Shown here piece after piece: positions 37,560-53,444 of a DNA stretch of 64,000 bases. This DNA comes from Anaeromyxobacter sp. (GTDB lineage Bacteria; Myxococcota; Myxococcia; Myxococcales; Anaeromyxobacteraceae), in the NCBI GenBank assembly GCA_049840735.1, contig JASGJN010000013.1, positions 640,001 to 704,000 on the forward strand, written 5' to 3'. The position numbers were made by a program, and so were the translations under genes. The notes beneath the pieces were generated by a model that saw only the letters and a list, made by a program, of their open reading frames with translations, had not been told where the DNA came from and made no database searches. Numbering within the stretch: position 1 is the first letter of the stretch; each line of letters begins with the position of its first letter.

Positions 37560-37597
37560 GGTCCGCGGCGCGGACCCCACCGGTCGCGGCGCGGACC
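37560..37597. promoter_or_regulatory. Tandem palindromic sites, putative enhancer-binding-protein UAS of T3SS operon 1
   Basis: GGTCCGC-GGC-GCGGACC (37560-37576) and cGgtCGC-GGC-GCGGACC (37581-37597); same motif and spacing at 47219-47256. Confidence 0.75.
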
Positions 37598-37649
37598 ATG
37601 GGCGGGGGGACGCGGCGCGCAAGTGCGCGTCCGGACGCGAGCTGCTGCG

Positions 37650-37665
37650 CGGCACGCCGGTTGCT
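37650..37665 (+). promoter_or_regulatory. Sigma54 (-24/-12) promoter of T3SS operon 1
   Basis: CGGCACG-CCGG-TTGCT matches TGGCACG-N4-TTGCW with correct GG-N10-GC spacing. Confidence 0.8.
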
Positions 37666-37677
37666 CAACCGGCCGCC

Positions 37678-38133
37678 ATGACCACTCCCCTCACCGCCCT
37701 CCCCTCCGTCCATGTCTCCCCCACCAGCGAGCAGCGCGCCCAGCCGGGCCGCTTCGAGGAGGCCCTGCGCGGCGCCGCCTCCGGGTTCGTCTCCGGCGCG
37801 GCGGCCGGCCTGCAGCTGGCGGCCCCCTACGTCCCCGGCGGCACGGTGCTCTCGGCGGCCGTCCGGGGCGCCACCTCGGCGGCCAGCTCGGCCGCAGCGG
37901 CCGCGGCCTCCGGGGCCGCGTCCGGCGCCGCCGCCGGCGCGGCCAGCTCCGGCAGCGAGGGCGACCTGCTCGAGGCCACGCGCGCGCTGCAGCAGCAGTC
38001 GCAGTCCTTCAACCTGCAGTACCTGCAGCTGCAGGAGGGCATGCAGCGGGAGAGCCGGGAGTTCGCGGCGCTCTCCAACGTCATGAAGGTGAAGCACGAC
38101 ACCGCCCGGTCCACCATCCAGAACATCCACTGA
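37678..38133 (+). CDS. T3SS-associated protein with needle-subunit (SctF)-like C-terminus
   Basis: [37 protein letters not shown] resembles SctF C-terminal helices; first gene before rod-like and sctJ genes. Confidence 0.6.
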
Positions 38134-38149
38134 GCCGGCCGAGACGGAG

Positions 38150-38497
38150 GTGACCGTGACGCCCATCCTTCCTGCCGGCGCCTCGCCGGCGCTCGCCCCA
38201 ACCCCGGCCCCCACCGCGCGCGGCCGGTTCGCCGCCCTGCTGGAGGGGACGCTCCCCGCCGTCGCCCCGCGCACCGTCCAGCCCCCCGGCAAGGCGCTGC
38301 TGCACGCCGTGGAGCGGGCCCAGGCCCGGCTCGACGGCGTGCTCGCGGCCTCCCGCGCCGGCCGCACCTTCACCGCGCAGGAGCTGCTGGGCCTGCAGTC
38401 CGAGGCCTACCGCGCCGCGCAGACCGTCGACCTGGCCGCGCGGCTGGTGGAGCAGGGCGCCCAGTCGGTGAAGCAGGCGCTCAACACGCAGGTGTGA
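38150..38497 (+). CDS. T3SS inner-rod (SctI)-like protein
   Basis: QELLGLQSEAYRAAQTVDLAARLVEQGAQSVKQALNTQV resembles the SctI/PrgJ C-terminus; directly upstream of sctJ. Confidence 0.65.
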   Translation: MTVTPILPAGASPALAPTPAPTARGRFAALLEGTLPAVAPRTVQPPGKALLHAVERAQARLDGVLAASRAGRTFTAQELLGLQSEAYRAAQTVDLAARLVEQGAQSVKQALNTQV

Positions 38498-38505
38498 GGG
38501 TGCGC

Positions 38506-39234
38506 ATGCCCACCGTCTCGCGCGCGGGCGGCCTGGCGCTGGCGCTGGCCGGCCTGGCCGGCTGCGGCCGCTCCGAGCTCTTGCACGGCCTCGACGAGCG
38601 CCAGGCCAACGAGGTGCTGGTGGCGCTGGGCGAGGCGGGAGTCGCCGGCGAGAAGGTCCGCGACGCCGGCGCGGAGGGGACCTGGCAGATTGAGGTCCCG
38701 GCCGGCCAGGCGGCGCCGGCGCAGCGGCTCCTCTCCGAGCGCGCCCTGCCGCGCCCGCGCCCGCCCGGGCTGGGCGAGGTCTTCGGCGCCGGCTCGCTGG
38801 TCCCCACCGCGGTGGAGGAGCAGGCCCGCTACGCCCACGCGCTCTCCGGCGAGCTGGCCCGCTCGCTGGAGGGGCTGGACGGCGTGGTCGGGGCGCGGGT
38901 CCACCTGGCGCTGCCCGGGCCCGACCGGCTGGGGCTCGCGGACCGCCCGCGCGCCCGCGCCGCGGTCCTGCTCCGCTGCCGCCCCGGCGCCTGCGCTGCG
39001 CTGCGCGGGCTCGACCCCGGGCTGCGGGCGCTGGTCGCGGGCGCCGCGCAGGGGCTGGACCCGGCGGACGTGGCGGTGGTGCTGGCGCCGGCCGCCGAGG
39101 CGCCCGCGCCTCCGGTCCAGGGCTCCACCCCGGCGGCGCGCTACCTGGCGCTGGCCGCTGCGGCTGCGCTGGGGGCCGCCGCAGCGCTGGGCGCGGGGTT
39201 CGCGGCGCGGCTGCGGCGCAGGCCGCGCGCGTGA
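38506..39234 (+). CDS. sctJ: T3SS inner-membrane ring lipoprotein
   Basis: LAGC lipobox, LLHGLDERQANEVLVAL, SLVPTAVEEQARY..GELARSL..GVVGARVHLALP, C-terminal TM and basic tail. Confidence 0.9.
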   Translation: MPTVSRAGGLALALAGLAGCGRSELLHGLDERQANEVLVALGEAGVAGEKVRDAGAEGTWQIEVPAGQAAPAQRLLSERALPRPRPPGLGEVFGAGSLVPTAVEEQARYAHALSGELARSLEGLDGVVGARVHLALPGPDRLGLADRPRARAAVLLRCRPGACAALRGLDPGLRALVAGAAQGLDPADVAVVLAPAAEAPAPPVQGSTPAARYLALAAAAALGAAAALGAGFAARLRRRPRA

Positions 39235-39536
39235 GCCCGGAGGACCGGCGCCTGGCCGCGCTGCTGGCGGCGCTGCTCCCCGCGCGCGCCGCGGCCGTGC
39301 TCGCCCGCGGCCCCGGCGCGGCCGCGCAGGAGGCGGCGCGGCTGGCCGGGCTCCCGCGCCAGGACCGGCTCGCGGCGCTGGAGCGCGCGCTGGAGCGGGA
39401 GGGCGCCGCCGATCCCGCCGCGACCGCGGCGCTGGAGCGCCCGCGGATGGCCGCCGCGCTGGCGGAGCTGGCGCGCGGCGGCGGGGCGGAGCTGCCTCCG
39501 GTGCTGGTGCGGCTGCTGCGCGAGCGGCTGGGGTGA
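39231..39536 (+). CDS. Small T3SS-associated protein at the SctK position
   Basis: GTGA overlap with sctJ; helical 101 aa; assigned by position only. Confidence 0.5.
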   Translation: MSPEDRRLAALLAALLPARAAAVLARGPGAAAQEAARLAGLPRQDRLAALERALEREGAADPAATAALERPRMAAALAELARGGGAELPPVLVRLLRERLG

Positions 39537-39697
39537 CGGGACGCGGGCGGGCCGGGTCCCGGGCCACGCCGTTCAAGGCGCCGCACCCGCCGGCCCTCCC
39601 CGCGCGCGCGGGTCTGCGCGGTTCCGCGCAACCACTTCACTCGCCGCGCGACCTGGCCGGTGAGGTAGTCTGCCCCCGCACCGCCCCGGGGCCCGCC

Positions 39698-41985
39698 ATG
39701 ATCCGCCAGTTTGCTCTCCACTCCGATGCCCTCCCCCCCCAGGCACGCGTTCGCGCCCTGAGAGGCCGGGAGCGGCTCTCCCAACCGTACGCCTTCGACG
39801 TGTTCCTCGAGCTGGACTCGGCCGCCGCCGACCTGGGCGCCGCGGTCGGGCAGCCAGCGACGCTGCGCCTCAACGGTCCGCTCGGGGAGCCCCGGGACGC
39901 CATCCACGGGATTCCTCTCGTCCATCGAGCTGCTGGACACCCGGTCCGACCACGAGCTGTGCCGCGCCGTCCTCGTGCCCCGGCTCTGGTGGCTCGCCCA
40001 GAACCGGCACAGCCGCGTCTTCGTGGGGGACTCCGTCCCGGCGATCATCAATCAGGTGCTGCGCAAGGCTGGCTGGACCCCCGACGACTACCGGCTGGCC
40101 CTGGCCGGTCGACCGGGAAAGGGTTACTGCCCGCTCGAGCACGTGTGCCAGTACCGCGAGAGCGACCTCGACTTCCTCTCGAGGTGGATGGAGCGGGAGG
40201 GCATCTACTACTACTTCGAGCAGGCCGACGCCCACGAGAAGCTGGTGATCGTGGACGCGGCGGAGGACCACCGCGAGCGGACGGCGGGCGCCCACCGCTT
40301 CGTCCCCCGCACCAGCGGCGAGGCCAACCGCGTCGAAGGCTTCCGCACCTTCCGCTTCGCCGCCCAGGCGCAGCCCGCCGGCGTGCGGCTGGCCGACTAC
40401 AACTACCTCAACCCTGACCTGCCCGTGCGCCACGAGGAGCGGCGCGGCGAGGGACCGCTGGTGTCGCTCTTCGGCGAGAACATCCCCTCGCCCGACGAGG
40501 CCCAGTGGCTCACCCAGATCCGGACCCAGGAGCTCCGGGCACGGCAGGTGCTCTATCGCGGGACGGGCTGCGTCCACGGCATCCATCCGGCCAGCAGCTT
40601 CTCGCTGGAGGAGCACCCGCGCTTCGACAAGGAGCTGCTCGCCGTCGAGGTGCTCCACCGCGGCACCGATCTCCGAGGGGGCGGCGTGGGGGCGGGAGGC
40701 CATCGAGGAGGCGGCGGGCGAGCCGCTGCCGGATGGCTACGAGGCGGAGGTGGTGGCCATCCCCGCCACCGTCCAGTACCGGCCTCCCCGGCTGGCCCCG
40801 ACGCCGCGCATCACCGGCCTCGAGACGGCGGTGATCGACGGGGAGGCCGACGAGCGCTACGCGCAGCTCGACGAGCACGGGCGGTACGCCGTCCGGATCC
40901 GCTTCGACGAGAGCGATCTCGGCCCCGGCCAGGCCTCCACCCGCGTCCGCATGCTGCAGCCGCACGGGGGCAGCCAGGAAGGCTTCCACTTCCCGCTGCG
41001 CAAGGGGACCGAGGTGATGCTCGCCTTCGTGGGCGGAGACCCGGACCGCCCGGTCATCGTGGGCGTGGGCCCGAACGCCCACAAGCCCAGCCCGGTCACC
41101 CGCAAGAACGCCACGCAGAACGTGATCGTGACGGGCGGCCTCAACGCCCTGGTGATGGAGGACACCCAGGGCGCAGAGTACGTGCGCAGCGAGTCGCCCG
41201 CCAGCCGGAGCTTCCTGCACCTGGGCGCGCCCGAGAAGGCCCTGGGCAAGAACCTGGTGCTCTCGACCGACGGGACGGGGCTGGTGCACACCGGCAGCGA
41301 CCTCACCGTCGAGACCCTCGGCGCCCGCGCCGACGACGTGACCGGCGACCTGACCGAGACCTACCGCGCCGCGCAGCAGACGACCGTGCACGGCGCGCGC
41401 GAGGACACGGTCAAGGGGAAGGTGACCGAGCGCTTCGAGGCCGGACACGAGCACAAGGTCCTGGGCGGCGGCGTGGTCCGCGAGGTCACCGGGGGCGAGA
41501 CCGAGAAGGTGGTCGGTGCGCGCACCCAGACCATCGAGGGCGCCGTCGACCAGACCATCAAGGGTGCGCAGACGCTCACGCACGATGGCCCGATCACCCA
41601 GACCGTGAAGGGCGGGGTCACCCAGACCGTCAACCCCGGGAACGTGGCCATCAACGTGCCCGCCGGGACCTTCAAGGTCGACGCCAGCGGCGAGGTGCTG
41701 CTCACCTCCAAGACCAGCGCCCAGTTCTCCGCGCCAGAGGCGAAGCACATCTGGCCGAAGCTGGTGAGCCTGACCTGGACCAAGTACGCGGTGACGGCGC
41801 ACGCGGCCACCGTCGCGAGCCTCGTCACGAACCTCCACGGCACCAAGATGGACTTCAACCTCCTCAAGGTCGACCAGTCGGCGGGCGTGGTCCAGAACAC
41901 GCCGGCCAAGTTCGAGAACGTGGGCCAGGCGCTCGGCTTCGGAGCCTTCGCCATCAAGTACTACGCGCTCACCATCCTGGGCTGA
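39698..41985 (+). CDS. vgrG: Type VI secretion spike protein VgrG (two apparent +1 frameshifts at about 39912 and 40667)
   Basis: GRERLSQPYAF, LVPRLWWL..SRVF, QYRESDLDFLSRWMEREGIYYYF, DYNY..P, DEHGRYAVR, GFHFPLRKGTEV..FVGGDPDRPVI, beta-repeat spike; 761 aa reconstructed. Confidence 0.92.
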
Positions 41986-42007
41986 TCTCCCCACCGCCGG
42001 AGCCCCC

Positions 42008-42475
42008 ATGCTGATGCCAGAGCTCATCCGCTTCCTCTGGGCGTTCATCCTCGCCTGCGTTGCGCTCATGATCTTCCCCTTCTCGGACACCGGCATCCTG
42101 GCGGGCTTCCCCCGCCTGCTCCGCGTGGCCCAGTCGCTGCGCTGGGTGTTCCCGATCCTCTCGGTGATCCTCTTCGTGGTGGCGGGGCGCCTGGATGGGC
42201 GGCGCACGGACCGCCTGCTGGCGAGCGGGCGCAGCGCGCCGGCCACCGTGCTCGAGGTTCGCGATCGCGGCATCTCGATCGGCGAGAGCCCGGTGCTGAC
42301 GGTGAAGCTGCGGGTGATGCCGGAGGGCGCGGCGCCGTTCGAGGCGGAGGTCGCCTTCGTCCCCTCCCGCGTCACCATGGGGATTGTCCAGGCCGGCGCC
42401 GCGGCGACGGTGCGCTATGACCCCGCCGACCCCGGCACCATCGCCGTGGAGAGCGTGATGGTGTCGTCCCACTGA
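42008..42475 (+). CDS. Two-TM membrane protein with C-terminal beta domain (DUF3592-like)
   Basis: Two hydrophobic helices, then LLASGRSAPATVLEV..VRYDPADP. Confidence 0.65.
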   Translation: MLMPELIRFLWAFILACVALMIFPFSDTGILAGFPRLLRVAQSLRWVFPILSVILFVVAGRLDGRRTDRLLASGRSAPATVLEVRDRGISIGESPVLTVKLRVMPEGAAPFEAEVAFVPSRVTMGIVQAGAAATVRYDPADPGTIAVESVMVSSH

Positions 42476-42485
42476 CCGCCCGGCC

Positions 42486-45081
42486 ATGAAGATCGTCAAG
42501 CCGCAGCGGCTCTCGCTCCTCTCCCGCACCTTCGAGCATCGGAGGACCATCCGCCTCTCGGTGGCGGCGCTGGTGCTCTTCGATCTGGAGGACCCGCGCC
42601 GCATCCTCACCGAGGCCAGCCTCTGGAAGACGCTCCCGCCCGAGCTGGGCCGCGACGCGGCCCTGGACGCGGCCATGCCCAAGGCGCGGGCCGAGTTCCT
42701 GGTCACCGGGTTCGCCTTCCCGCCAGGCGGCGCGCCCGCCATCGCATGCGCGCCGTGCGCGGCGATCGGACCGCTGGAGAAGACGCTCCGCGCCATCGGC
42801 GACCGCACCTGGGTGGACGGCGTCGCCTCCTCGCCCGTCCCCTTCACGCGCCTCCGGCTCGGCTGGGAGCATGGGTTCGGCGGGCCGAAGTTCCCCCAGA
42901 ACCCGCTCGGCAAGGGGGCCGCGCCCATGCCCGGCCCAGACGGCCAGGGGAAGGTCCACCCGCTCCCCAACCTCGAGGATCCCCGCCAGCCCATCCGCTC
43001 CCTGCGCGACCGGCCGGCGCCGGCCGGCTTCGGGCCCATCGACCTCACCTGGCCGCAGCGCGCGCGCAAGGCCGGCACCTACGATTGCCGCTGGCAGGAG
43101 ACCACCTACCCTGGCCTGCCGGACGACCTGGACTGGACGTTCTTCAACGTCGCCGCCGAGGACCAGCAGCGGGACGCCCCGTTCCAGCCGGGCGAGCCGT
43201 TCCGCCTGGAGCACCTGCACCCGGAGCGCCGCTGCATCGAGGGTCGGCTGCCTGGCGCGGTGGCGCGCTGCTTCGCCACCATCCGCACGCCGCAGGGAGA
43301 GGCGTTCCGCGAGATCCCGACCCGGCTCGACACGGTCTGGTTCTTCCCGCACCTGCTGCGCGGCGTGCTCGTCTTCCACGGCTCGACCGCGGTCGCCGAG
43401 GACGACGCCGACGACGTGCTGCACCTGGTCGCGGCGCTGGAGGAGGCTGGACGGCCCCGCCCCGCGGACCACTACCGGGAGGTGCTGGCGCTGCGGCTCG
43501 ACCGCCAGCGTGGCGCGCTGGCCATGCTGGACGAGGCGGCGCTGGTGCCGCCCTGGCCCGGCCTCGCCGAGCCGTTCGACCCCGGCGACGCGCCGGAGCC
43601 GGAGGTGGACCTGCTGGCCGAGAACCAGCGCCGCGCCGCCGATCGGGCCCTGGCGGAGCTCCGCGAGACCCTGGCCGCAGAGGGCTACGCCATCCCCGAG
43701 CCCCCGGGCCCGCCGCCGGCGGGAGGCGGCGCCGGCGCCGGCGCCGAGCGCTCGATGGCGGAGATGGTGGCGCAGGCGCAGGCGGTGCAGGCCTGGGCCG
43801 AGCAGGGGCAGGCAGAGGCCAGGGAGGAGCTGCGCGCAGCGCTGGCCGCGCAGGGGCTCGATCCCGACGCGCCGCCGCCGGGCGGCCCCCCGACCTTCAG
43901 CGCAGACGAGGAGCTGGCCGGGCTCCGGGCCGCGGCCGCGGAGGCGCCGGACGGCGCGTTCGCGCGGATGGCCTCGGGATCCGTCCACCGAGCCACGGCT
44001 GCGCGAGGCCGAGAACGCCATGCGTGAAGGGTACCGGCTCACCGCGCACCACGGCGCGCCCGCCGCCCCCCGCGACGCGGCCGCCGCCCGGGCACTCCGG
44101 GAGGCCCTGCTGGCCGGCCTCGCGGCCGGCGAGAGCATGGACGGCCGCGACCTGACCGGCGCGGACCTGGCCGGCGCTGCGCTCGCAGGCGCGAACCTGG
44201 CCGGCGCGTTCCTGGAGGGGGCGAAGCTGGCCGGGGCCGACCTCCGCGGCGCCGATCTCTCGCGGGCCGTGCTGGCCCGGGCCGACCTCTCGGGCGCGGA
44301 CCTGGGCGGCGCGCGGCTGGCCGGCGCGAACCTGGGCGGCGCCGCGCTGCGCGACGCTCGGCTGGCCGAGGCGGACCTCACGGCGGCCATCCTGAACCGG
44401 GCCGAACTCCGCGGGGCCTCGCTGGCCGGGGCCCGCGCCGAGAAGGCAGAGCTGGGCGAGGCGCGGCTGGCCGGCGCCGACCTCTCCGGCCTGCGCGCTC
44501 CCGGGATCGTCCTGCAGAAGGTCGATCTCACCGGGCTCCGGCTGTCCGGAGCCGACCTGTCGCAGGCGACGCTCATCGAGTGCCGCCTCGACCGGGCCGA
44601 CCTGTCCGGCGCGATCATGGAAGGCGCGACGCTGCTCTCCTCCCAGGCGTGCGGCGCCGACCTGCGGAAGGCCCGGCTCGCGCGCATCCGGGTGGTGGGT
44701 GAGAGCAGCCTGGCGGAGGCGGACCTGCGCGAGGCCGACCTCGACGGCGCCAACCTGCGCGGCGCGAAGCTGTCGGGGGCGCGCCTGGAGGGGGCGCGCC
44801 TGGGCGCCGCCGACCTGTCCGGCGCCGACCTGCGCGGCGCCCGGCTCGCCGGCGCCACCGCCCGCGACTCACGGTGGGTCCGGGCCGATCTGACGGGCGC
44901 CGTCGCCGACGGGGCCGATTTGATGGGGGCCATCCTCCAGAAGGCCACGCTCTCCGGCGCACGGTTCCACGGCGCGAGCCTGTACGGCGCGGACCTCTCG
45001 CGCGTGGTCGTCCAGACGCCGCTCGCGCTGGAGTCCGCGAACGTGAAGAAGGTGCGCTTTCGCCCGGTGAGGGTGCGGTGA
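42486..45081 (+). CDS. DUF2169 adaptor fused to pentapeptide repeats, TagAB-like (one apparent +1 frameshift at about 43977)
   Basis: MKIVKPQRLS, LDAAMPK, NPLGKG, PAGFGPID..WPQR..GTYD, FFNVA..DQ, LDTVWFFP, then A(D/N)LxG repeats; 864 aa reconstructed. Confidence 0.9.
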
Positions 45082-46137
45082 CCGCCGACGAGCTCCGCGC
45101 GCTGGCCCGCTCTGGCCAGCCCATCACCGCGCTCGATCTCGCCGGCAGCGACCTGCAGGGCGCCGACCTGTCCGGCGCGGTGTTCGAGCGCGTCTCGTTC
45201 CGCGGCGCCCGGCTGGAGGGGGCCACGCTGCGCGGGTCGCTCCTGGGCGAGTGCGAGCTGGGCCAGGCCGCGCTCGACGGCGCCGACCTGCGGCAGGTGG
45301 TGCTCGACCGCTGCCGGGCCGAGGGCGCCCGCCTCGGCGAGGCCCGGCTCGGCTCCGCCCGCCTGCTCCGGTGCAATCTCTCCGGCTGCGATCTCGTCCG
45401 GGGCGGAGCTCCTCCGGACCGCCTTCTCCTCCTGCCGCCTCGCCGGCGCGCGCCTCACCCGTGCTCGGGCTACCGAGAGCTCGCTCCTCGACTGTGACAC
45501 CGCGGGGATCGACCTCTCCGGCGCCCGCCTGGAGCGGGCCGTGCTGGGCGGGGCCGACCTGACCACCGCCAAGCTCGACGGGGCGACGTTCGAGCTGACC
45601 GTGCTCGCCGCGACCCGGCTCGCCGGCGCGTCGCTCGGCGGCGCCGCCTTCCCGCGCTGTCAGCTGGTGGAGGCGGACCTGACCGCCTGCGACCTCCGGG
45701 GCGCGGACCTCACCGGCGCGAACTTCAAGGGGGCCACCCTCGAGCGCGCCCGCCTCGACGAGGTGCGCGCGGAGAACGCCCTCTTCCCGGGAGCGCGGCT
45801 GGCCGGCGCCTCCCTGGTGGGCGCCAGGCTCCGCCAGGCCATCCTGGCCGACGCGGATCTCACCGGCGCCGATGCGTCGGGCGCCGACCTGCAGCAGGCC
45901 ATCCTGCAGCGCGCGCGCTGCAGCGCCGCCCGGCTTGCGGGCGCCGACCTCACCTACGCCGACCTGTCGCACGCCAATCTCACCGGGGCCGATCTGACCG
46001 GCGCGAAGGTCTTCCGCGCCCGGCTGCACCTGGCGCGGACCGCCCGCGCCCTGATCCCCGGACGCAGCCTGGCCCTGGGCGACGACGCCGAGCTGGCCGA
46101 GGCCGAGCGGTACCGGCCCTCTCTCCCCCCGAGGTGA
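45078..46137 (+). CDS. Pentapeptide-repeat protein, TagB-like (one apparent +1 frameshift at about 45395)
   Basis: Continuous pentapeptide repeats across two frames; GTGA overlap with the upstream gene; 352 aa reconstructed. Confidence 0.88.
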
Positions 46138-46140
46138 ACG

Positions 46141-46791
46141 ATGATCCACGCACTCAAGCCCTCGCTGCCCGCCGCCCCCTGCCTCGAGATCGGGACGGTG
46201 GTGAGCTGCCTGGACGGCCGCATCACCGTCGTGAACGCCCAGGGCGAGTGGCGGGCACGCCGCGCCGTGAGCTGCCTGGTGGCGCCCGAGCCCGGCGACC
46301 TGGTGCTCCTCCTCGATGGTCTGGCGGGCGAGGCCTTCGTCACGGCGGTGCTGGCCCGCGAGGCCGGGGTGCCGCTCCGGCTCGAGGCGGCCGGCGACGT
46401 GGCGTGGCACCTGCCCGAGGGGCGGTTCTCGGTCGCGGCCGGCGGCGGGCTCGACCTCGCCACCACGGCGCGCGCCAGCGTCGAGGCCGCGGAGCTGCGC
46501 CTCACCGCGGGCGAGGCGGGGTTGCAGGTGCAGCGGCTCTCCTTCCTGGGACGGATCGTCCAGGCGCAGGTCGAGTCGCTGAAGCTGGTGGCCGGTGCGC
46601 TCGACCAGACCCTGGAGCGGCTCTGGCAGCGCGTGCGCCGCTCCTACCGCTTCGTCCAGGAGGACGACCACGTGCGCGCCGGGAACCTGGACTACGCCGC
46701 CCAGGAGAGCGCCCATGTCCGCGGCAGGAACGCCCTGGTCACCGCCGACCAGCTCGTGAAGGTCGACGGCGGCCAGGTCCACATCGGCTGA
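46141..46791 (+). CDS. DUF3540 protein, TagC-like
   Basis: ARRAVSCLVAPEPGDLVL..AFVTAVLAR..SYRFV..VKVDGGQVHIG. Confidence 0.88.
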   Translation: MIHALKPSLPAAPCLEIGTVVSCLDGRITVVNAQGEWRARRAVSCLVAPEPGDLVLLLDGLAGEAFVTAVLAREAGVPLRLEAAGDVAWHLPEGRFSVAAGGGLDLATTARASVEAAELRLTAGEAGLQVQRLSFLGRIVQAQVESLKLVAGALDQTLERLWQRVRRSYRFVQEDDHVRAGNLDYAAQESAHVRGRNALVTADQLVKVDGGQVHIG

Positions 46792-46801
46792 GGGAGCCCC
46801 C

Positions 46802-47197
46802 ATGTTCGCCAACACCCAGCTTTCCGGCCTCGACGTCGGCTTCCCGGACGTCTGCCTCACGCCCGCGGCCCCCTCCCCCATCCCCATCCCCTACCCCAAC
46901 CTCGCCGCCGGCCCCATGGGCGTGCCGGCGGCCTACCACGTGCTCCTGGGGATGGCGCCCGCCCACAACCTGGGCACGGTGGTGCCCCTGACCAACGGTG
47001 ACAATGCCGGCGTGCTCACCGGCGTCGCGTCCGGCACGGTCATGGGACCGGGCCGCCACCTCACCGGCGCCTTCACGGTGCTGGTGGGCGGGATGCCGGC
47101 CACGCGCCTCACCAGCGTGGCCCTCCAGAACTCGACCAACTGCCCCGGGGTCCGGCTGGTCCCGAGCCAGGTCAAGGTACTGCTGCTCGCCCCCTGA
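46802..47197 (+). CDS. DUF4150 PAAR-like spike-tip protein, TagD-like, no toxin extension
   Basis: FPDVCLTP..PIPYPN, GDNAG..GVASGTVMG, QNSTN, PSQVKV; 131 aa. Confidence 0.92.
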   Translation: MFANTQLSGLDVGFPDVCLTPAAPSPIPIPYPNLAAGPMGVPAAYHVLLGMAPAHNLGTVVPLTNGDNAGVLTGVASGTVMGPGRHLTGAFTVLVGGMPATRLTSVALQNSTNCPGVRLVPSQVKVLLLAP

Positions 47198-47218
47198 AGC
47201 GGCGCGCCCGCGCCGCAC

Positions 47219-47256
47219 GGTCCGCCACGCGGACCCCGTGGTCCGCGCCGCGGACC
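47219..47256. promoter_or_regulatory. Tandem palindromic sites, putative enhancer-binding-protein UAS of T3SS operon 2
   Basis: GGTCCGC-CAC-GCGGACC (47219-47235) and GGTCCGC-GCC-GCGGACC (47240-47256). Confidence 0.75.
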
Positions 47257-47308
47257 GTCCTCCGCGGGCCCGCCCGTGCAAGCCCGCGGATCCAGGCGTC
47301 CCGCCCCC

Positions 47309-47324
47309 TGGCACGCGCCGTGAA
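47309..47324 (+). promoter_or_regulatory. Probable sigma54 promoter of T3SS operon 2 (deviant -12)
   Basis: TGGCACG-CGCC-GTGAA; perfect -24 box, with the same offsets to UAS and start codon as the 37650 promoter. Confidence 0.62.
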
Positions 47325-47336
47325 GTGCCGGCCAGC

Positions 47337-48305
47337 GTGCTCTTCCTCGACCTGCCCCGCCTGTCGCGCGGGTTCGCCGCCCTCGCTCCAGAGGCCCGCC
47401 GCCTGGGCGACGAGGCCGCGGCTGGCGCCGGCGCCGCGCTGGGGGCGCTGCTCGGCTGCGAGGTGGGCGTCCGCGGCCGGGCCACGCCGGGGCCGGGCGG
47501 GCCGCTGCTGGGCGCGGCACGCCTCCCGCTGGCGCTGCAGGCGGTCCCGGCCGCCGGCGCCCTGGAGGTGGAGGCGGCGCTGGTGGCAGCGGTGGCGGAC
47601 CGGCTCGCGGGCGGCGACGGGGCGGTCGCCGGCGCCACCGCGCTCACGCCGGTGGAGGGCAGCCTGCTGGAGCTGCTCGCGCTGACCGCGCTGGACGGTG
47701 CCTGCCGCGTTCCCCAGCTGGAGGCGGCGCTGGGGCCGCGCCTGGCACGCACCGGCCCTTCGCCGGCTTCGCCGCTCTGCATCGAGCTGGAGCTGGCCGC
47801 CGGTCCGCTGCGCGGCCGCGGGCGGCTGCTGCTCGAGGCGGGGGCGGTGCGGGCGCTGGCGGGCGCGCCTCCGCTGCCGGGCGGGAGCCTGGCCCTGCCG
47901 GTCTCGTATCGGCAAGGCCGGGCGGAGCTGCTGCCTGAGGAGCTGGAGGCGCTCTTCCCGGGCGACGTGGTGCTGCTCGAGGCGGAGCGCGGCGAGGTGC
48001 TGGTGCTGCCCGGCGGCGCGCGGGCCAGCGGGTTCCTGGACGAGGAGGGCTTCCACGTGGACGAGACGGGGCGCACCAGCCGGACGGCGCAGCTGCCGGT
48101 GGTGCTGGAGGTGGAGCTGGCGCGGGTGGAGCTGACGCTCTCGGAGCTCTCGGCGCTGGCGCCGGGCGGGGTGGTGCCGCTGGCGGTGGACCGCCGCGGC
48201 CGCGTGACCCTGCGGGCCGGGGAGCGGGCCGTGGCGCAGGGCGAGCTGGTCGAGATCGAGGGGGCGCTGGGCGTGCGGATCACCGCGCTGGAGGTGGGGC
48301 CGTGA
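47337..48305 (+). CDS. sctQ: T3SS cytoplasmic ring / sorting platform protein (SpoA, FliM/FliN C-terminal domains)
   Basis: LEALFPGDVVLL and LPVVLEVELARVELTLSELSALAPGGVV..GELVEIEGALGVRI. Confidence 0.85.
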   Translation: MLFLDLPRLSRGFAALAPEARRLGDEAAAGAGAALGALLGCEVGVRGRATPGPGGPLLGAARLPLALQAVPAAGALEVEAALVAAVADRLAGGDGAVAGATALTPVEGSLLELLALTALDGACRVPQLEAALGPRLARTGPSPASPLCIELELAAGPLRGRGRLLLEAGAVRALAGAPPLPGGSLALPVSYRQGRAELLPEELEALFPGDVVLLEAERGEVLVLPGGARASGFLDEEGFHVDETGRTSRTAQLPVVLEVELARVELTLSELSALAPGGVVPLAVDRRGRVTLRAGERAVAQGELVEIEGALGVRITALEVGP

Positions 48306-48667
48306 TCGCCGCCCGCCTCCACGCCGCGGGCCCCTGGGCCCGGCGCCTGCTGCCCGTCCTCGGCGGCGCGCTCGCGCTGGGGTTCCTGGCCCTGCTGGCG
48401 GCCGCGCCCGGGGGCTCCGGCGCCGCCGCCGCGCGCATCTCGCTGCTCGCCGGGGCCCTGACGGCGTTGGCGGTGCTGGCCCGGCGCCTGCGCGTCCGCG
48501 CCGGCGCGCCCGCGCCGCTCCGCGTCCTGGCCCGCGCCGCCCTCTCGCGCGAGGCGGGGGTGGCGCTGCTGGAGGTGCACGGGCGCCCGCAGCTCGTCGG
48601 GTACGGCCCGGGCGGCGTGCGGGTCCTGGGGGAGGTGCCGCCCCCGCCCGCGGAGGACGCGCCGTGA
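48302..48667 (+). CDS. FliO-like membrane protein
   Basis: TM segments, then LRVLARAALSREAGVALLEVHGRPQLVGYGPGGVRVL; immediately before the sctR/fliP homolog. Confidence 0.7.
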   Translation: MIAARLHAAGPWARRLLPVLGGALALGFLALLAAAPGGSGAAAARISLLAGALTALAVLARRLRVRAGAPAPLRVLARAALSREAGVALLEVHGRPQLVGYGPGGVRVLGEVPPPPAEDAP

Positions 48668-49338
48668 TCGCCGCCCTCCTCGTCCCGGACGCGGGGCCGG
48701 TGGCGGCGCGGCCGGCCGAGCTGCTGGTGCTCCTGGCCGCCCTGGCCGTGGTGCCGGCGGCGCTGGTGATGCTCACCTCCTTCCTCAAGATCTCGGTGGT
48801 CCTCTCCATCGCGCGGTCGGCGCTGGGCGCGCCGCAGGTGCCGCCGTCCTCGGTGGTCACCGGGCTCTCGCTGGTCCTGTCGCTCCTGGTGATGACGCCG
48901 GTGGCGGAGCAGTGCCTGGCCGCGGCCGGGCGCGAGGACGGCGCCGGCGCGGAGGCCGCGCTGGCGCGCCTGGAGCGCGCCTCCGGCCCGCTGCGCGGCT
49001 TCCTGCAGCGGTTCGCCAGCCCGGACGACCGGGCCGCCTTCGCCGAGGTGGCCACGCGCCTCAGGCCGGTCGGCGCGGCGCCGCCGGGCGAGTCCGACCT
49101 GGCGGTGCTGGCGCCGGCCTTCGTGGTCTCGGAGCTGCGCCGCGCCTTCACCATCGGCTTCCTGGTCTTCCTCCCCTTCCTGGTGGTGGACCTGGTGGTC
49201 GCGAACGTCCTGCTGGCGCTGGGGCTCACCCAGCTCTCGCCCACCTCGGTCTCGCTGCCCTTCAAGCTGCTCCTCTTCGTCGCCGTGGACGGCTGGCGCG
49301 TGCTGGCCCGGGCGCTGGCGCTCTCCTACCTGGGGTGA
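48664..49338 (+). CDS. sctR: T3SS export gate subunit SctR (FliP family)
   Basis: TSFLKISVVLSIARSALG..QVPP, PAFVVSELRRAFTIGF..PFLVVDLVVANVL..SLPFKLLLFVAVDGW. Confidence 0.93.
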   Translation: MIAALLVPDAGPVAARPAELLVLLAALAVVPAALVMLTSFLKISVVLSIARSALGAPQVPPSSVVTGLSLVLSLLVMTPVAEQCLAAAGREDGAGAEAALARLERASGPLRGFLQRFASPDDRAAFAEVATRLRPVGAAPPGESDLAVLAPAFVVSELRRAFTIGFLVFLPFLVVDLVVANVLLALGLTQLSPTSVSLPFKLLLFVAVDGWRVLARALALSYLG

Positions 49339-49340
49339 CC

Positions 49341-49607
49341 GTGGATCCGGCCCTGCTGCAGCTCGCCCGCGAGGCGCTGGTGGCCGCCTCGCTGGCCTCG
49401 GCGCCGCCGCTCGCCGCCGCGCTGGCGGTCGGGCTCCTCACCGGCGTGCTCCAGGCGGCCACCACGGTGCAGGAGCCTTCGCTGGCGGTGGTGCCGCGGC
49501 TGGCGGCGGTGCTCGGGGCGCTGCTGGTGGCCGCCCCCTGGATCGCCGCGCAGGTGGTCCGCTTCGCGGTGGCCTGCCTCGAGGCGGCCGCCTGGAGGTG
49601 GCCGTGA
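49341..49607 (+). CDS. sctS: T3SS export gate subunit SctS (FliQ family)
   Basis: 88 aa; SAPPL..VGLLTGVLQAATTVQEPSLAVVPRL..APW. Confidence 0.88.
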   Translation: MDPALLQLAREALVAASLASAPPLAAALAVGLLTGVLQAATTVQEPSLAVVPRLAAVLGALLVAAPWIAAQVVRFAVACLEAAAWRWP

Positions 49608-50368
49608 CCGCGCCGGGGCTGGAGGGCTTCTGGCCGCTGGCCGGGGCGGCCCTGCTGCACGCGCTGCGGCTGCTCCCGCTGGCGCTCACCTCGCCGCTGC
49701 TGGGCGGCCCGCTCCTGCCGCCGGCCGGCCGGCTGGGGCTGGCCTTCGGGCTGGGCGGGGTCGCGGCCTGGCTCGCCGCGCCGCCGCCCCCGGCCAGCTG
49801 GCCGGCCGCGTGCGCCACCGAGGCGGCGCTGGGGCTGGGGCTGGCGGTGCTGGCGGCCGCGCCGCTGGAGGCGGCCCGCGGCGCGGGGCGGCTGGTGGAC
49901 ACCTTCCGCGGCGCCACGCTGGCCGAGCTGCACGTGGCCCCGCTGCGCCAGCGCGAGAGCGCCGCCGGCGACCTGCTGGCGCAGCTGGTGCTGGTGCTGG
50001 CCGGGTGGGCCGGCGGGGAGCGGCTGCTGGTCGGCGGCCTGCTCGGCTCCTTCGCGACGCTGCCCGCCGGCGCGCCGTTCGCGGGCGCGGGGCTGCGCGA
50101 GGCGGTGCTGGCCTCCAGCGCCGCGCTGCTCTCCAGCGCGGTGGCGCTCTCGCTGCCGGCCGCCGCCGGCGTGCTCTGCGCCGACCTGGCCCTGGCCGGC
50201 GCCTCCCGCGTGGCCCCGCAGCTCGGCGCCGTCAACGCGGCCCAGCCGCTGCGCGCCACGCTGGGGCTCCTGGCCCTGGCCGGCGTGGCGGCCACCGCCG
50301 GAGGCCGGCTGGCGGGGCTCCTGCTGGCGCCGCTGCAGCTGCCGCTCCCGGCGGGAGGGCTGCCGTGA
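49604..50368 (+). CDS. sctT: T3SS export gate subunit SctT (FliR family)
   Basis: Hydrophobic; EAALGLGL..AGRLVDTFRG, SFATLP, LSLP..DLALA..RVAPQL. Confidence 0.85.
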   Translation: MTAPGLEGFWPLAGAALLHALRLLPLALTSPLLGGPLLPPAGRLGLAFGLGGVAAWLAAPPPPASWPAACATEAALGLGLAVLAAAPLEAARGAGRLVDTFRGATLAELHVAPLRQRESAAGDLLAQLVLVLAGWAGGERLLVGGLLGSFATLPAGAPFAGAGLREAVLASSAALLSSAVALSLPAAAGVLCADLALAGASRVAPQLGAVNAAQPLRATLGLLALAGVAATAGGRLAGLLLAPLQLPLPAGGLP

Positions 50369-51393
50369 CGTCCCGCACCGAGGAGCCCACCCCGCGCCGG
50401 CTGCGCGAGGCCCGGCGCCGCGGCCAGGTGGCCGCCAGCCGCGAGCTGACCGCGGCGGCGGCGCTGGCCGGCGGCCTGCTGGCCCTGGCCGCGACCGCGC
50501 CGTGGGTGGGCGCTGCGCTGCTGGCGCAGCTGCGCGAGGGGCTGGCCCGCGCGGTGCTGGCGCCGACGGCGCCCGGGCCGGCGCTGACCGGCGCGGCCGC
50601 GGCGGTGATGCGGCTGGTGCTGGCGCCTTGCCTGGGGGCGCTGGTGGCGGGCGCGCTGGCCGGCGCGGCGCAGTCCGGGTTCCTGTTCAGCCCCGGGGCG
50701 CTGCGGCCGCGCCTCTCGCGGCTGTCGCCCGCGGCGGGGCTGCGCCGGCTGGTGACCCCGGCCCAGCTCGCCGGGGTGGCGCTGGGGCTCCTCAAGGCGG
50801 CGCTGCTCCTGGCGGTGGCGTGGCGCTGGGCGCGCGCGGAGGCCCCCGGCGTGCTCGCGCTTGCGCGGCTCGAGCCGGACGCCGCCTGGCGCTGGCTGCC
50901 GGCGCTGGCCGGCCTCCTGGCGCGGCTGGCGGCGGCGCTGGTGGCCCTGGGGCTTTTGGACCTGCTCCTGGCGCGGCGGCGGCACCGGCGCGGGCTGCGC
51001 ATGACCAGGGACGAGGTCCGGCGGGAGCACCGGGAGGACGAGGGTGACCCGGCGCTCCGCGCCGAGCGCCGCCGGCTGGGCCGGGCGCTGGTGGAGGCCG
51101 GCCCGGTGGCGCGCGCCACCGTGCTGGTGGTGAACCCGACGCGGCTCGCGGTGGCGCTCCGGCACCGGCGCGGCGGGGACGAGGCGCCGCGGGTGGTGGC
51201 CAAGGGCGCGGGGCGCGACGCCGCCCGGCTCCGCTCGGCGGCGCGGCGCGCCGGCGTGCCCATCGTGGAGAACGTGCCGCTGGCGCGGGCGCTCCACCGG
51301 CTGGTGGAGCTGGGCGACGAGATCCCCGAGGAGCTCTACGAGGGCGCGGCCGCGGTGCTGGCCCACCTCTACGGGCGGGAGGCCTCCCCGTGA
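50365..51393 (+). CDS. sctU: T3SS substrate-switch protein SctU (FlhB family)
   Basis: RTEEPTPRRLREARRRGQVAASREL, MTRDEVRREHREDEGDP, VVNPTRLAVAL, AKG, VPIVENVPLARAL, IPEELY. Confidence 0.92.
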   Translation: MTSRTEEPTPRRLREARRRGQVAASRELTAAAALAGGLLALAATAPWVGAALLAQLREGLARAVLAPTAPGPALTGAAAAVMRLVLAPCLGALVAGALAGAAQSGFLFSPGALRPRLSRLSPAAGLRRLVTPAQLAGVALGLLKAALLLAVAWRWARAEAPGVLALARLEPDAAWRWLPALAGLLARLAAALVALGLLDLLLARRRHRRGLRMTRDEVRREHREDEGDPALRAERRRLGRALVEAGPVARATVLVVNPTRLAVALRHRRGGDEAPRVVAKGAGRDAARLRSAARRAGVPIVENVPLARALHRLVELGDEIPEELYEGAAAVLAHLYGREASP

Positions 51394-53444
51394 CCGCGCC
51401 CCTTCACCGGGCGCTGTCACGCCTGCGCGGCACCGGCGACGCGCTCTTCGCGCTGGCGGTGGTGGGGGTGGTGCTGCTCCTGGTCACCCCGCTGCCGCCG
51501 GCGGCGCTGGACGCGCTGCTGGCGGTCAACCTGGCCCTGGCGACGGCCATCCTGGTGGTCACGCTGCTGGCGCGCGACGCGCTGGGGCTGGCCAGCTTCC
51601 CCTCGCTCCTGCTGCTCACCACGCTCTTCCGGCTGGCGCTCAACGTCTCCTCCACCCGGCTGGTGCTGGCCCACGGCCAGGCGGGCCGCGTCATCGAGGC
51701 CTTCGGGCGGGTGGTGGTGCAGGGCGACCACGTGGTGGGCGCGGTGGTCTACGCGGTCATCACGCTGGTGCAGCTGCTGGTGGTGGCGCGCGGCGCCGAG
51801 CGGGTGGCGGAGGTGGCCGCCCGGTTCACGCTGGACGCGCTGCCGGGGAAGCAGCTCTCCATCGACGCGGACCTGCGGGCCGGGGCCATCGACGCGGCCG
51901 AGGCCCGCCGCCGGCGGCGGGCGCTGGAGCGCGAGGGGCAGCTGCACGGCGCCATGGACGGCGCGCTCAAGTTCGTGAAGGGGGACGCCCTGGCAGGCGT
52001 GGCCATCGTCCTCGTCAACGTGGTGGGCGGGCTGGTGGCCGGGGCGGTGCGCGGGCTGCCCCTGGCCGAGGCGGCGCGCCGCTACACGCTGCTGGCCATC
52101 GGCGACGGGCTGGTCTCGCAGCTCCCGGCGCTGCTCATCTCGGTGGCGGCGGGCGTGGCGGTGACGCGGGTGGCGGGCGAGGAGGAGGGCGCGACCCTGG
52201 GGCGCGAGCTGGCCCGGCAGCTGGCCGCGGCCCCGGTCGCGCTGGCGGTGGTGGCCGGGCTCTTGGCGGCGCTGGCGCTGGCGCCGGGGCTGCCGGCCTT
52301 GCCCTTCCTGCTGCTGGCCGGCGCGCTCGGCGCCGCCGCGCACCGGCTGGCCCGGCGCGCGGGGGCGCCGGCGCGCGCCCGCGAGCTCCCGCCGGCCGCC
52401 GGGGCCGAGGAGCCGCTGGGCCCGCCCGCGCCGGTGGTGATCGCGCTCGCCCCCGACCTGCACGCCCGGGCCGCGGCCGGCCCGTTCACCACCGAGGGGC
52501 TGGCGGCGCTGCGGCGCGAGCTGTGGAGCGCGCTGGGGGTGCGGCTGCCGGCGGTGGCGGTGCGGGCGGTGGAGGCGCCGCCGGGCGCCTTCACGGTGCT
52601 GCTGGACGAGGTGCCGGCGGGTGGCGGCCAGGCGCCGGCCTCGGAGGTGGTGGTGCTGGCCCCGCCGGACGAGCTGGCCCTCCTCGCCATCCCGGCCGCG
52701 CCGGAGGCGGACCCGCTCTCCGGCCGCACCGTCTCGGTGGTCCCGGCCGGCGCGGCCGCGCGCGCCGCGGCGCTGGCGCCGGTGCGCGACCCGCTGGAGC
52801 GCGTGCTGGCCACCACCGCCGGCATCCTGCGCCGCCAGGCGCGCCACCTGGTGGGCGTCCAGGAGGTGCAGGCGCTGCTGGACGGGCTCGAGCCCGCCGC
52901 GCCGGCCCTGGTGCGCGAGATCTCCCGGCAGGTGCCGGCGCCGGTGCTGGCCGAGGTGCTCCGGCGTCTGCTGGAGGAGGGCGTCTCGATCCGCCCGCTG
53001 GCGCTGATCCTCGAGGCGGTGCTGGAGGCGGGGCCGGGCCGCGGTCCGGCCGCGCTGGCCGAGGCCTGCCGACGGGCGCTGCGGCGCCACCTGGCCCACG
53101 CGCACGCCTCCGGCGGCGTGCTCGCGGTGCTGCTGCTCGATCCGGCGGTGGAGCAGGAGCTGCGCGACGCGCTGGCGGGCGACCTCCTCGCGCTCGACCC
53201 GCGCGCGGCGGTCCGGATCCTCGACGCGCTGGCGGCCGAGCTATCGGCCGGCGGCGCACCGGCGGCGCTGCTCACCAGCCCCGACGTGCGGAGGCCGCTG
53301 CGCGGCCTGGTGGCGCCGCGCTTCCCGGCGCTGCCGGTGCTGGCCTACGACGAGCTGCCGCCCGAGCTGCCGGTCCGTCCACTGGGGCGGGTCGCGGCGA
53401 GCGGGCGGCTGGACGGCGCGGTGGAGGGAGGCTTGACGGTGTAG
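51390..53444 (+). CDS. sctV: T3SS major export apparatus protein SctV (FlhA/FHIPEP family)
   Basis: FPSLLLLTTLFRLALNVSSTRLVL, GAERVAEVAARFTLDALPGKQ, GAMDGALKFVKGD, IGDGLVSQLP, LLEEGVSIR. Confidence 0.95.
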   Translation: MTAPLHRALSRLRGTGDALFALAVVGVVLLLVTPLPPAALDALLAVNLALATAILVVTLLARDALGLASFPSLLLLTTLFRLALNVSSTRLVLAHGQAGRVIEAFGRVVVQGDHVVGAVVYAVITLVQLLVVARGAERVAEVAARFTLDALPGKQLSIDADLRAGAIDAAEARRRRRALEREGQLHGAMDGALKFVKGDALAGVAIVLVNVVGGLVAGAVRGLPLAEAARRYTLLAIGDGLVSQLPALLISVAAGVAVTRVAGEEEGATLGRELARQLAAAPVALAVVAGLLAALALAPGLPALPFLLLAGALGAAAHRLARRAGAPARARELPPAAGAEEPLGPPAPVVIALAPDLHARAAAGPFTTEGLAALRRELWSALGVRLPAVAVRAVEAPPGAFTVLLDEVPAGGGQAPASEVVVLAPPDELALLAIPAAPEADPLSGRTVSVVPAGAAARAAALAPVRDPLERVLATTAGILRRQARHLVGVQEVQALLDGLEPAAPALVREISRQVPAPVLAEVLRRLLEEGVSIRPLALILEAVLEAGPGRGPAALAEACRRALRRHLAHAHASGGVLAVLLLDPAVEQELRDALAGDLLALDPRAAVRILDALAAELSAGGAPAALLTSPDVRRPLRGLVAPRFPALPVLAYDELPPELPVRPLGRVAASGRLDGAVEGGLTV

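Follow-up and report, generated by a model that had tools for sequence, protein, structure and literature searches.

A class III Tvp-type VgrG-PAAR cassette between the two operons of a short type III secretion locus in Anaeromyxobacter

The secretion locus and its insert

A stretch of 64,000 nucleotides from Anaeromyxobacter sp. (assembly GCA_049840735.1, contig JASGJN010000013.1, positions 640,001 to 704,000; hereafter the window) carries type III secretion system (T3SS) genes in two blocks, 37678-39536 and 47337-53444, which flank an insert at 39698-47197 that contains spike genes of a type VI secretion system (T6SS). All of these genes lie on the + strand. The source genome is assembled in 26 contigs, is 94% complete, and has a guanine plus cytosine (GC) content of about 74-75%. 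In Pfam and NCBIfam searches the T3SS blocks matched SctJ, SctQ, a FliO-like protein, SctR, SctS, SctT, SctU and SctV, and the insert matched VgrG, DUF2169, pentapeptide repeats, DUF3540 and Tox-PAAR-like (DUF4150). An earlier reading of the window, made from the letters alone (the sequence-only reading), had given the same gene identities, order and strand, and these were borne out with the exceptions of sctI, whose match is weak, and sctK.

The first T3SS operon is preceded by a sigma54-like (-24/-12) motif (37650-37665), which a motif scan found to be kept in relatives; such motifs are called sigma54-like here from the general consensus. The operon opens with a conserved gene (37678-38133) whose product has a C-terminal helix that is weakly HrpA/SctF-like, as judged from the conservation of the C-terminus and from weak matches of family members. 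There follow an sctI-like inner rod gene (38156-38497; PF17001 at E 0.013, below the cut-off, its position being kept in relatives), the sctJ gene for the inner-membrane ring lipoprotein (38494-39234; PF01514 at E 9e-22, with TIGR02544 as best match), and a small conserved gene that closes the operon (39231-39536). The latter had been called sctK-like; its homologues do stand immediately before sctQ in relatives, but no Pfam or NCBIfam family matched it, and the label is positional. The second operon retains its native upstream region (47219-47324, + strand) on the 3' side of the insert; the palindrome GGTCC-N7-GGACC occurs in it twice, along with a sigma54-like motif (47309-47324). It comprises sctQ (47337-48305; TIGR02551 as best match, and PF01052), a fliO-like gene (48302-48667; PF04347), sctR (48664-49338; NF009438 above cut-off), sctS (49341-49607; PF01313 at E 1e-20), sctT (49604-50368) and sctU (50365-51393), both identified by Pfam/NCBIfam, and sctV (51390-53444), for which TIGR01399 outscored FlhA. 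The palindromes occur both before operon 1 (37560-37576) and before operon 2 (47219-47256), and are candidate activator sites. An IHF/HU gene comes after sctV in the source genome and in several relatives.

The insert holds, in this order, vgrG, a DUF3592-like membrane gene, tvpAB, tvpB, tvpC and paar, a gene set equal to that of class III Tvp, which identifies it as an auxiliary cassette of this class. The vgrG gene (39698-41985) matched Phage_GPD and Phage_base_V (PF05954 and PF04717); in tblastn it maps in three frames against an intact 768-aa homologue, at 50-64% identity, with breaks near 39910 and 40674. The membrane gene (42008-42475) was recognized by a weak PF12158 match and by its Atlas neighbours. 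The tvpAB gene (42486-45081) encodes DUF2169 and then pentapeptide repeats, colinear with an intact 879-aa homologue across one frame break near 43975, and the separate pentapeptide repeat gene tvpB (45078-46137) also maps in two frames against its intact homologue, with a break near 45400. The tvpC gene (46141-46791) is of the DUF3540 type (PF12059, E 5e-59, 199.9 bits), and paar (46802-47197) codes for a 131-aa DUF4150 protein without a toxin extension (PF13665, E 3e-38). In base composition the cassette does not stand out, being at the 50th percentile for the genome.

In Serratia marcescens Db10 the class III genes run vgrG1-vai1-x-tvpAB-tvpB-tvpC-paar1. According to the available part of PMC13373197, TvpAB, TvpB and the DUF3540-type TvpC chaperone the DUF4150 PAAR onto VgrG, the membrane gene that follows vgrG1 confers immunity, and the suspected toxin is VgrG1 itself. 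In the available part of PMC11883445 this class is DUF2169 synteny type C, which the cassette in the window matches. The two share the same genes in the same order, a DUF3540 TvpC, pentapeptide repeats both fused to DUF2169 and free, a short DUF4150 PAAR without a toxin domain, and, immediately following vgrG, a small gene for a membrane protein. Unlike the Serratia cassette as described there, the one studied here is an orphan outside the main T6SS cluster, its membrane gene is DUF3592-like rather than DUF3192 (Vai1), and three of its genes are frame-broken. A quick version of a TvpA tree was used solely for naming the nearest row.

A DUF3592-like membrane gene stands directly 3' of vgrG or paar in 12/12 loci that carry it. 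In one other genome of the family (G009), five tandem diverged copies follow vgrG (L031:4394-6846) and resemble an immunity array. An immunity role fits the DUF3592-like protein because of these five copies and of the adjacency to vgrG or paar in the 12 loci, and by analogy the protein probably gives immunity.

The insertion site in relatives and the distribution of the cassette

The site was compared in 92 genomes of the family, the source and 91 others. An sctQ match was obtained in 64 of these 91, all of which keep the T3SS without the cassette. In 59 of the 64, sctJ and sctQ lay on one contig; the five in which they were split across contigs were left unscored. The gap between sctJ and sctQ was shorter than 1 kb in 55 of the 59 (median 463 bp, compared with 8106 bp in the source genome), so the adjacency of the two blocks in relatives, a comparison that the sequence-only reading had proposed, argues against a coupled system. 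The gaps of the remaining four relatives are filled by other genes: a GH12 glycoside hydrolase (G030), DUF222/HNH (G037), and Sel1 plus M16-like genes (G026 and G027). These inserts at the same boundary lie at L021:5406-6929, L022:7300-13200, L023:3900-9600 and L024:4377-5509; at L087, about 4.8 kb separates sctQ from sctR. The site is empty in seven relatives that carry both tssB and a single-contig short T3SS. As shown by synteny, the operon boundary before sctQ is a tolerated landing place, and in the short myxobacterial (Myxo) T3SS it accepts inserts of at least four cargo kinds in five genomes.

A sigma54-like motif was detected before the first gene of operon 1 in 19/20 relatives scored, and before sctQ in 19/19, with a chance expectation of ~0.009 per 96 nt in each case. 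In the window the motif and the palindromes still stand in front of sctQ, and no sigma54-like motif was found before vgrG; because of this, the insert should harm neither operon. The claim that it sits exactly between two separately promoted operons was thereby upheld. Assignments were obtained for every open reading frame between the sctK-like gene and sctQ, with no integrase or transposase among them. Among the 20 largest of at least 60 repeat families, which are dominated by pentapeptide repeats, no direct repeat links the junctions. This agrees with the earlier statement that no integrase, transposase or target duplication was seen there.

DUF3540 (tvpC) was found in 2/92 family genomes, namely the source and G009, and in 12/332 genomes of the class, with full-length matches in seven. 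All seven genomes with a strong tvpC (the source, G009 and five further ones) carry tssB, compared with 13/92 family genomes above the cut-off. In G009, whose copy is the closest by identity (50-68% over the pieces), tssB is present, the sctJ matches are weak and at the level of FliF, the ATPase matches are at 51-53%, and sctQ gave no match; the cassette there adjoins an upstream ferritin-like gene. In the five further genomes the cassettes with scanned flanks adjoin secA, glycogen phosphorylase, ppk, ribonucleotide reductase or isocitrate dehydrogenase, and no T3SS or T6SS core gene was seen within the flanks examined of the six copies.

A wider scan gave 139 loci in genomes and 135 in metagenomes, of which the best 80 from each set were kept, with 152 distinct match sequences. 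A T3SS or flagellar export gene was near the cassette in none of these best 160 loci, 107 of which had a flank long enough, and the same method detected 27/27 control loci. At least two T6SS core genes were near the cassette in 15 of the best 160. When genome contigs were scanned with the single TvpC protein nothing was confirmed; the alignment scan did confirm matches. From these sequence comparisons we conclude that the cassette travels with T6SSs, and not with T3SSs. The sequence-only reading had named recurrent T3SS linkage in genomes lacking hcp and sheath genes as support for a coupled system. No such recurrence was found in genomes without the T6SS core, either in the best 160 loci or at the 59 sites, and every strong-tvpC genome has tssB.

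In having a spike module off the core cluster and at variable loci, the cassette resembles the scattered vgrG and effector-immunity islands described in the available parts of PMC10433427 (myxobacteria) and PMC8855297 (P. aeruginosa); unlike these, the copy here adjoins no prophage or mobility gene. The former source, in that part, reports no sign that the T6SS contributes to predation on bacteria. A literature search, with most subscription papers outside its scope, found no description of a T3SS-nested vgrG cassette.

What T3SSs pass through their narrow gate are unfolded chains; VgrG-PAAR-Tvp, by contrast, is an assembly of trimeric, folded form, and its docking partners are Hcp and a baseplate. 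This mismatch speaks against a composite of T3SS base and T6SS tip. Such a composite, or else a co-regulated weapon, was one of the two explanations of the sequence-only reading, and the genomic tests gave it no support. As a composite machine, the secretin-less T3SS base would export or carry the VgrG-PAAR spike as its tip, as its physical nesting, its co-orientation and a T3SS without SctC and SctD above cut-off might suggest, and the needleless long T3SS* of myxobacteria, partnered with the Kil pilus in the available part of PMC12075869, offers a precedent. We give this composite next to no credence: the linkage recurs in 0/160 best loci and 0/59 sites, all 59 being empty or filled with other cargo, the 64 relatives retain the T3SS without the cassette, and a T6SS core is present in the genome. 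It is also extremely improbable that this lineage captured the spike cassette under sigma54-type control of the T3SS, with both systems acting at contact sites, or, at its boldest, that a T3SS base with an HrpA/SctF-like filament presents or exports the spike as a hybrid too recent to recur. A true hybrid, if true, would explain how secretin-less myxobacterial T3SSs reach their target.

A T6SS elsewhere in the genome and the state of the cassette

All T6SS core families (tssJKLM, tssA, tssB, tssC, hcp, tssE, tssF, tssG, clpV and fha) are present on contigs C15, C19 and C21, in stretches of host-like composition. C15 closes with tssJ, K, L, M, A and B, followed by the beginning of tssC. On C19 lie the last part of tssC, hcp, tssE, F and G, a second set that is of class II (DUF2169/DUF6484), clpV and fha, and C21 carries two more vgrG. 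The class II Tvp set (DUF2169, DUF6484) of the core T6SS locus lies at L014:1685-5625, which is C19:29685-33625, and since this locus has a set of its own the genome contains Tvp genes of class II as well as class III. The parts that had been noted as missing from the window fared differently: the T6SS core, sctL and sctN are elsewhere in the genome, and sctC and sctD stay below the cut-off genome-wide. An extracellular contractile injection system was rejected as the user of the spike, as the phage-type sheath family PF04984 had no match in the source genome.

Because the cell has its own T6SS elsewhere, we read the arrangement as an ordinary insertion with no hybrid weapon. We consider it very probable that two unrelated systems were juxtaposed by a lineage-specific insertion, and that the orphan spike cassette is served by the T6SS elsewhere. 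Every genomic test run supported this second explanation of the sequence-only reading, in which an orphan spike island occupies an operon boundary without doing harm. The class III Tvp cassette, an orphan, would have entered immediately behind the final gene of operon 1, leaving the operon 2 promoter intact. By homology with Serratia, TvpAB, TvpB and TvpC would chaperone the DUF4150 PAAR onto the cassette VgrG, and the spike would then be loaded onto and fired by the C15/C19 T6SS, with the DUF3592-like membrane protein as the probable immunity protein. The arrangement is unique, its position is incidental and not selected, and the cassette is a further orphan among those of class III Tvp; as it stands, it has little significance.

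Several observations weigh against an orphan cassette served by this T6SS. The cassette is co-oriented with the T3SS, and neither a terminator-like site nor a sigma54-like motif precedes vgrG. The T6SS core is itself in pieces: the two parts of tssC are on different contigs and leave profile positions 124-243 unrecovered, and both tssM and tssF fall into two frames. Homologues of the cassette VgrG are ~27-30% identical to the C21 VgrG, and because the cassette VgrG is far from the other VgrGs of the genome, its fit to the T6SS baseplate is only assumed. The relatives are non-independent samples, the cassette junctions are those of the assembly, and C19 is probably a chimeric contig. Its first part (C19:1-25360) is compositionally foreign, with a GC of 62-64%, above the 97th percentile, and is joined directly into tssC.

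Because of the foreign look of this 25 kb at the start of C19, the assembly carries a chimera risk, and this stretch, together with the many indel-type breaks, could point to a cassette of other origin that was fused with the T3SS locus in assembly. Such an artefact would take two joins, with both operons and the promoter of operon 2 left whole, the composition of the cassette is at the genome median, and the same site holds other inserts in four relatives; we therefore regard it as very improbable.

The co-orientation, with neither a terminator-like site nor a sigma54-like motif before vgrG, makes T3SS-driven transcription possible. The T6SS-fired cassette would then be transcribed by read-through across the 161-bp gap on the same strand from the sigma54-type promoter of operon 1, and spike output would track T3SS induction. 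We hold such regulatory capture to be unlikely. The terminator scan found no site in the whole 16.7 kb scanned, and hence none between operon 1 and vgrG, and is weak because of this and of the ~75% GC; a sigma70 scan of the locus, of similarly low power at this GC, also found nothing. Moreover, the arrangement occurs once, and the cassette presumably has a promoter that moves with it, since in other genomes it is found by itself at unrelated loci.

The frame breaks bear on whether the cassette is still in use. It has four breaks in 7.46 kb, compared with 1.24 expected at a background of 0.166 per kb (duplicates removed; Poisson P(≥4) = 0.037, in a post hoc test), and the flanking T3SS genes have none, compared with 1.3 expected. 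Because of this excess the cassette may be decaying, that is, it may have inserted, lost selection and become a pseudogenised relic with no present function, a history compatible with the orphan insertion favoured above. This we consider possible but doubtful: breaks are common in the source assembly (19/110 conserved genes sampled with a relative's proteins, and flhA, tssM and tssF as well), the background may be underestimated, and the pieces, 50-68% identical to the G009 homologues, align without internal stops. Either assembly errors or decay would account for the four breaks, so that the cassette may or may not still function.

The short T3SS and its first gene

From its gene content, order and distribution, the host locus is assigned to the short Myxo non-flagellar T3SS (NF-T3SS). 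It is very probably vertically inherited, and has two separately promoted operons. Like the system in the available part of Abby and Rocha 2012 (PMC3459982), it has SctI-like, SctJ, SctQ, SctR, SctS, SctT, SctU and SctV proteins, no secretin or SctD, and an order conserved across the family; a family profile search of the source genome, at its 94% completeness, gave only sub-cut-off matches to SctC and SctD. Unlike that system, the locus is interrupted by cargo, sctL-sctN is unlinked, and the first gene is weakly HrpA/SctF-like, whereas SctF is reported there as absent. The M. xanthus T3SS* that works with the Kil/Tad pilus is, in the available parts of PMC12075869 and PMC10433427, likewise a secretin-less T3SS of a myxobacterium; unlike the locus in the window it is a long one (SctD, SctN, SctL), and its partner is a Tad pilus.

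The protein of the first gene (37678-38133) belongs to a family of 1874 clusters, and its C-terminal helix shows high conservation over 23 family members. Of the 106 members aligned, 14 matched the HrpA pilin of NCBIfam (best E 5e-5), 10 the HrpA of Pfam, 10 HrpF and 6 T3SS_needle_F, all weakly; unrelated helical families also scored, with 11 members for Arg_decarb_HB. The window's own protein gave no HrpA, HrpF or T3SS_needle_F match, and neither sequence searches of the PDB nor Foldseek with its model (pTM 0.31) returned a filament. The literature search, within the scope given above, found no myxobacterial SctF described. As a lead, these family matches suggest that the 'needleless' short Myxo T3SS may have a filament subunit. 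This conserved HrpA/SctF-like gene bears more than the cassette does on how secretin-less T3SSs reach their target.

The sctL-sctN pair lies on contig C17 (171972-174061; L099:9972-12061), apart from both flagellar clusters. The T3SS ATPase encoded there is 70-78% identical in 4/4 T3SS-bearing relatives tested, and the sctL-sctN module is unlinked from the T3SS locus in the source genome and in the four relatives checked. The pair stands downstream of an apparent rpoB-rpoC and a sigma factor gene. The two flagellar clusters, C17:320000-335000 and 489000-521000, are separate, and each has FlhA- and FliI-like genes; the first of them (L017) may differ in origin.

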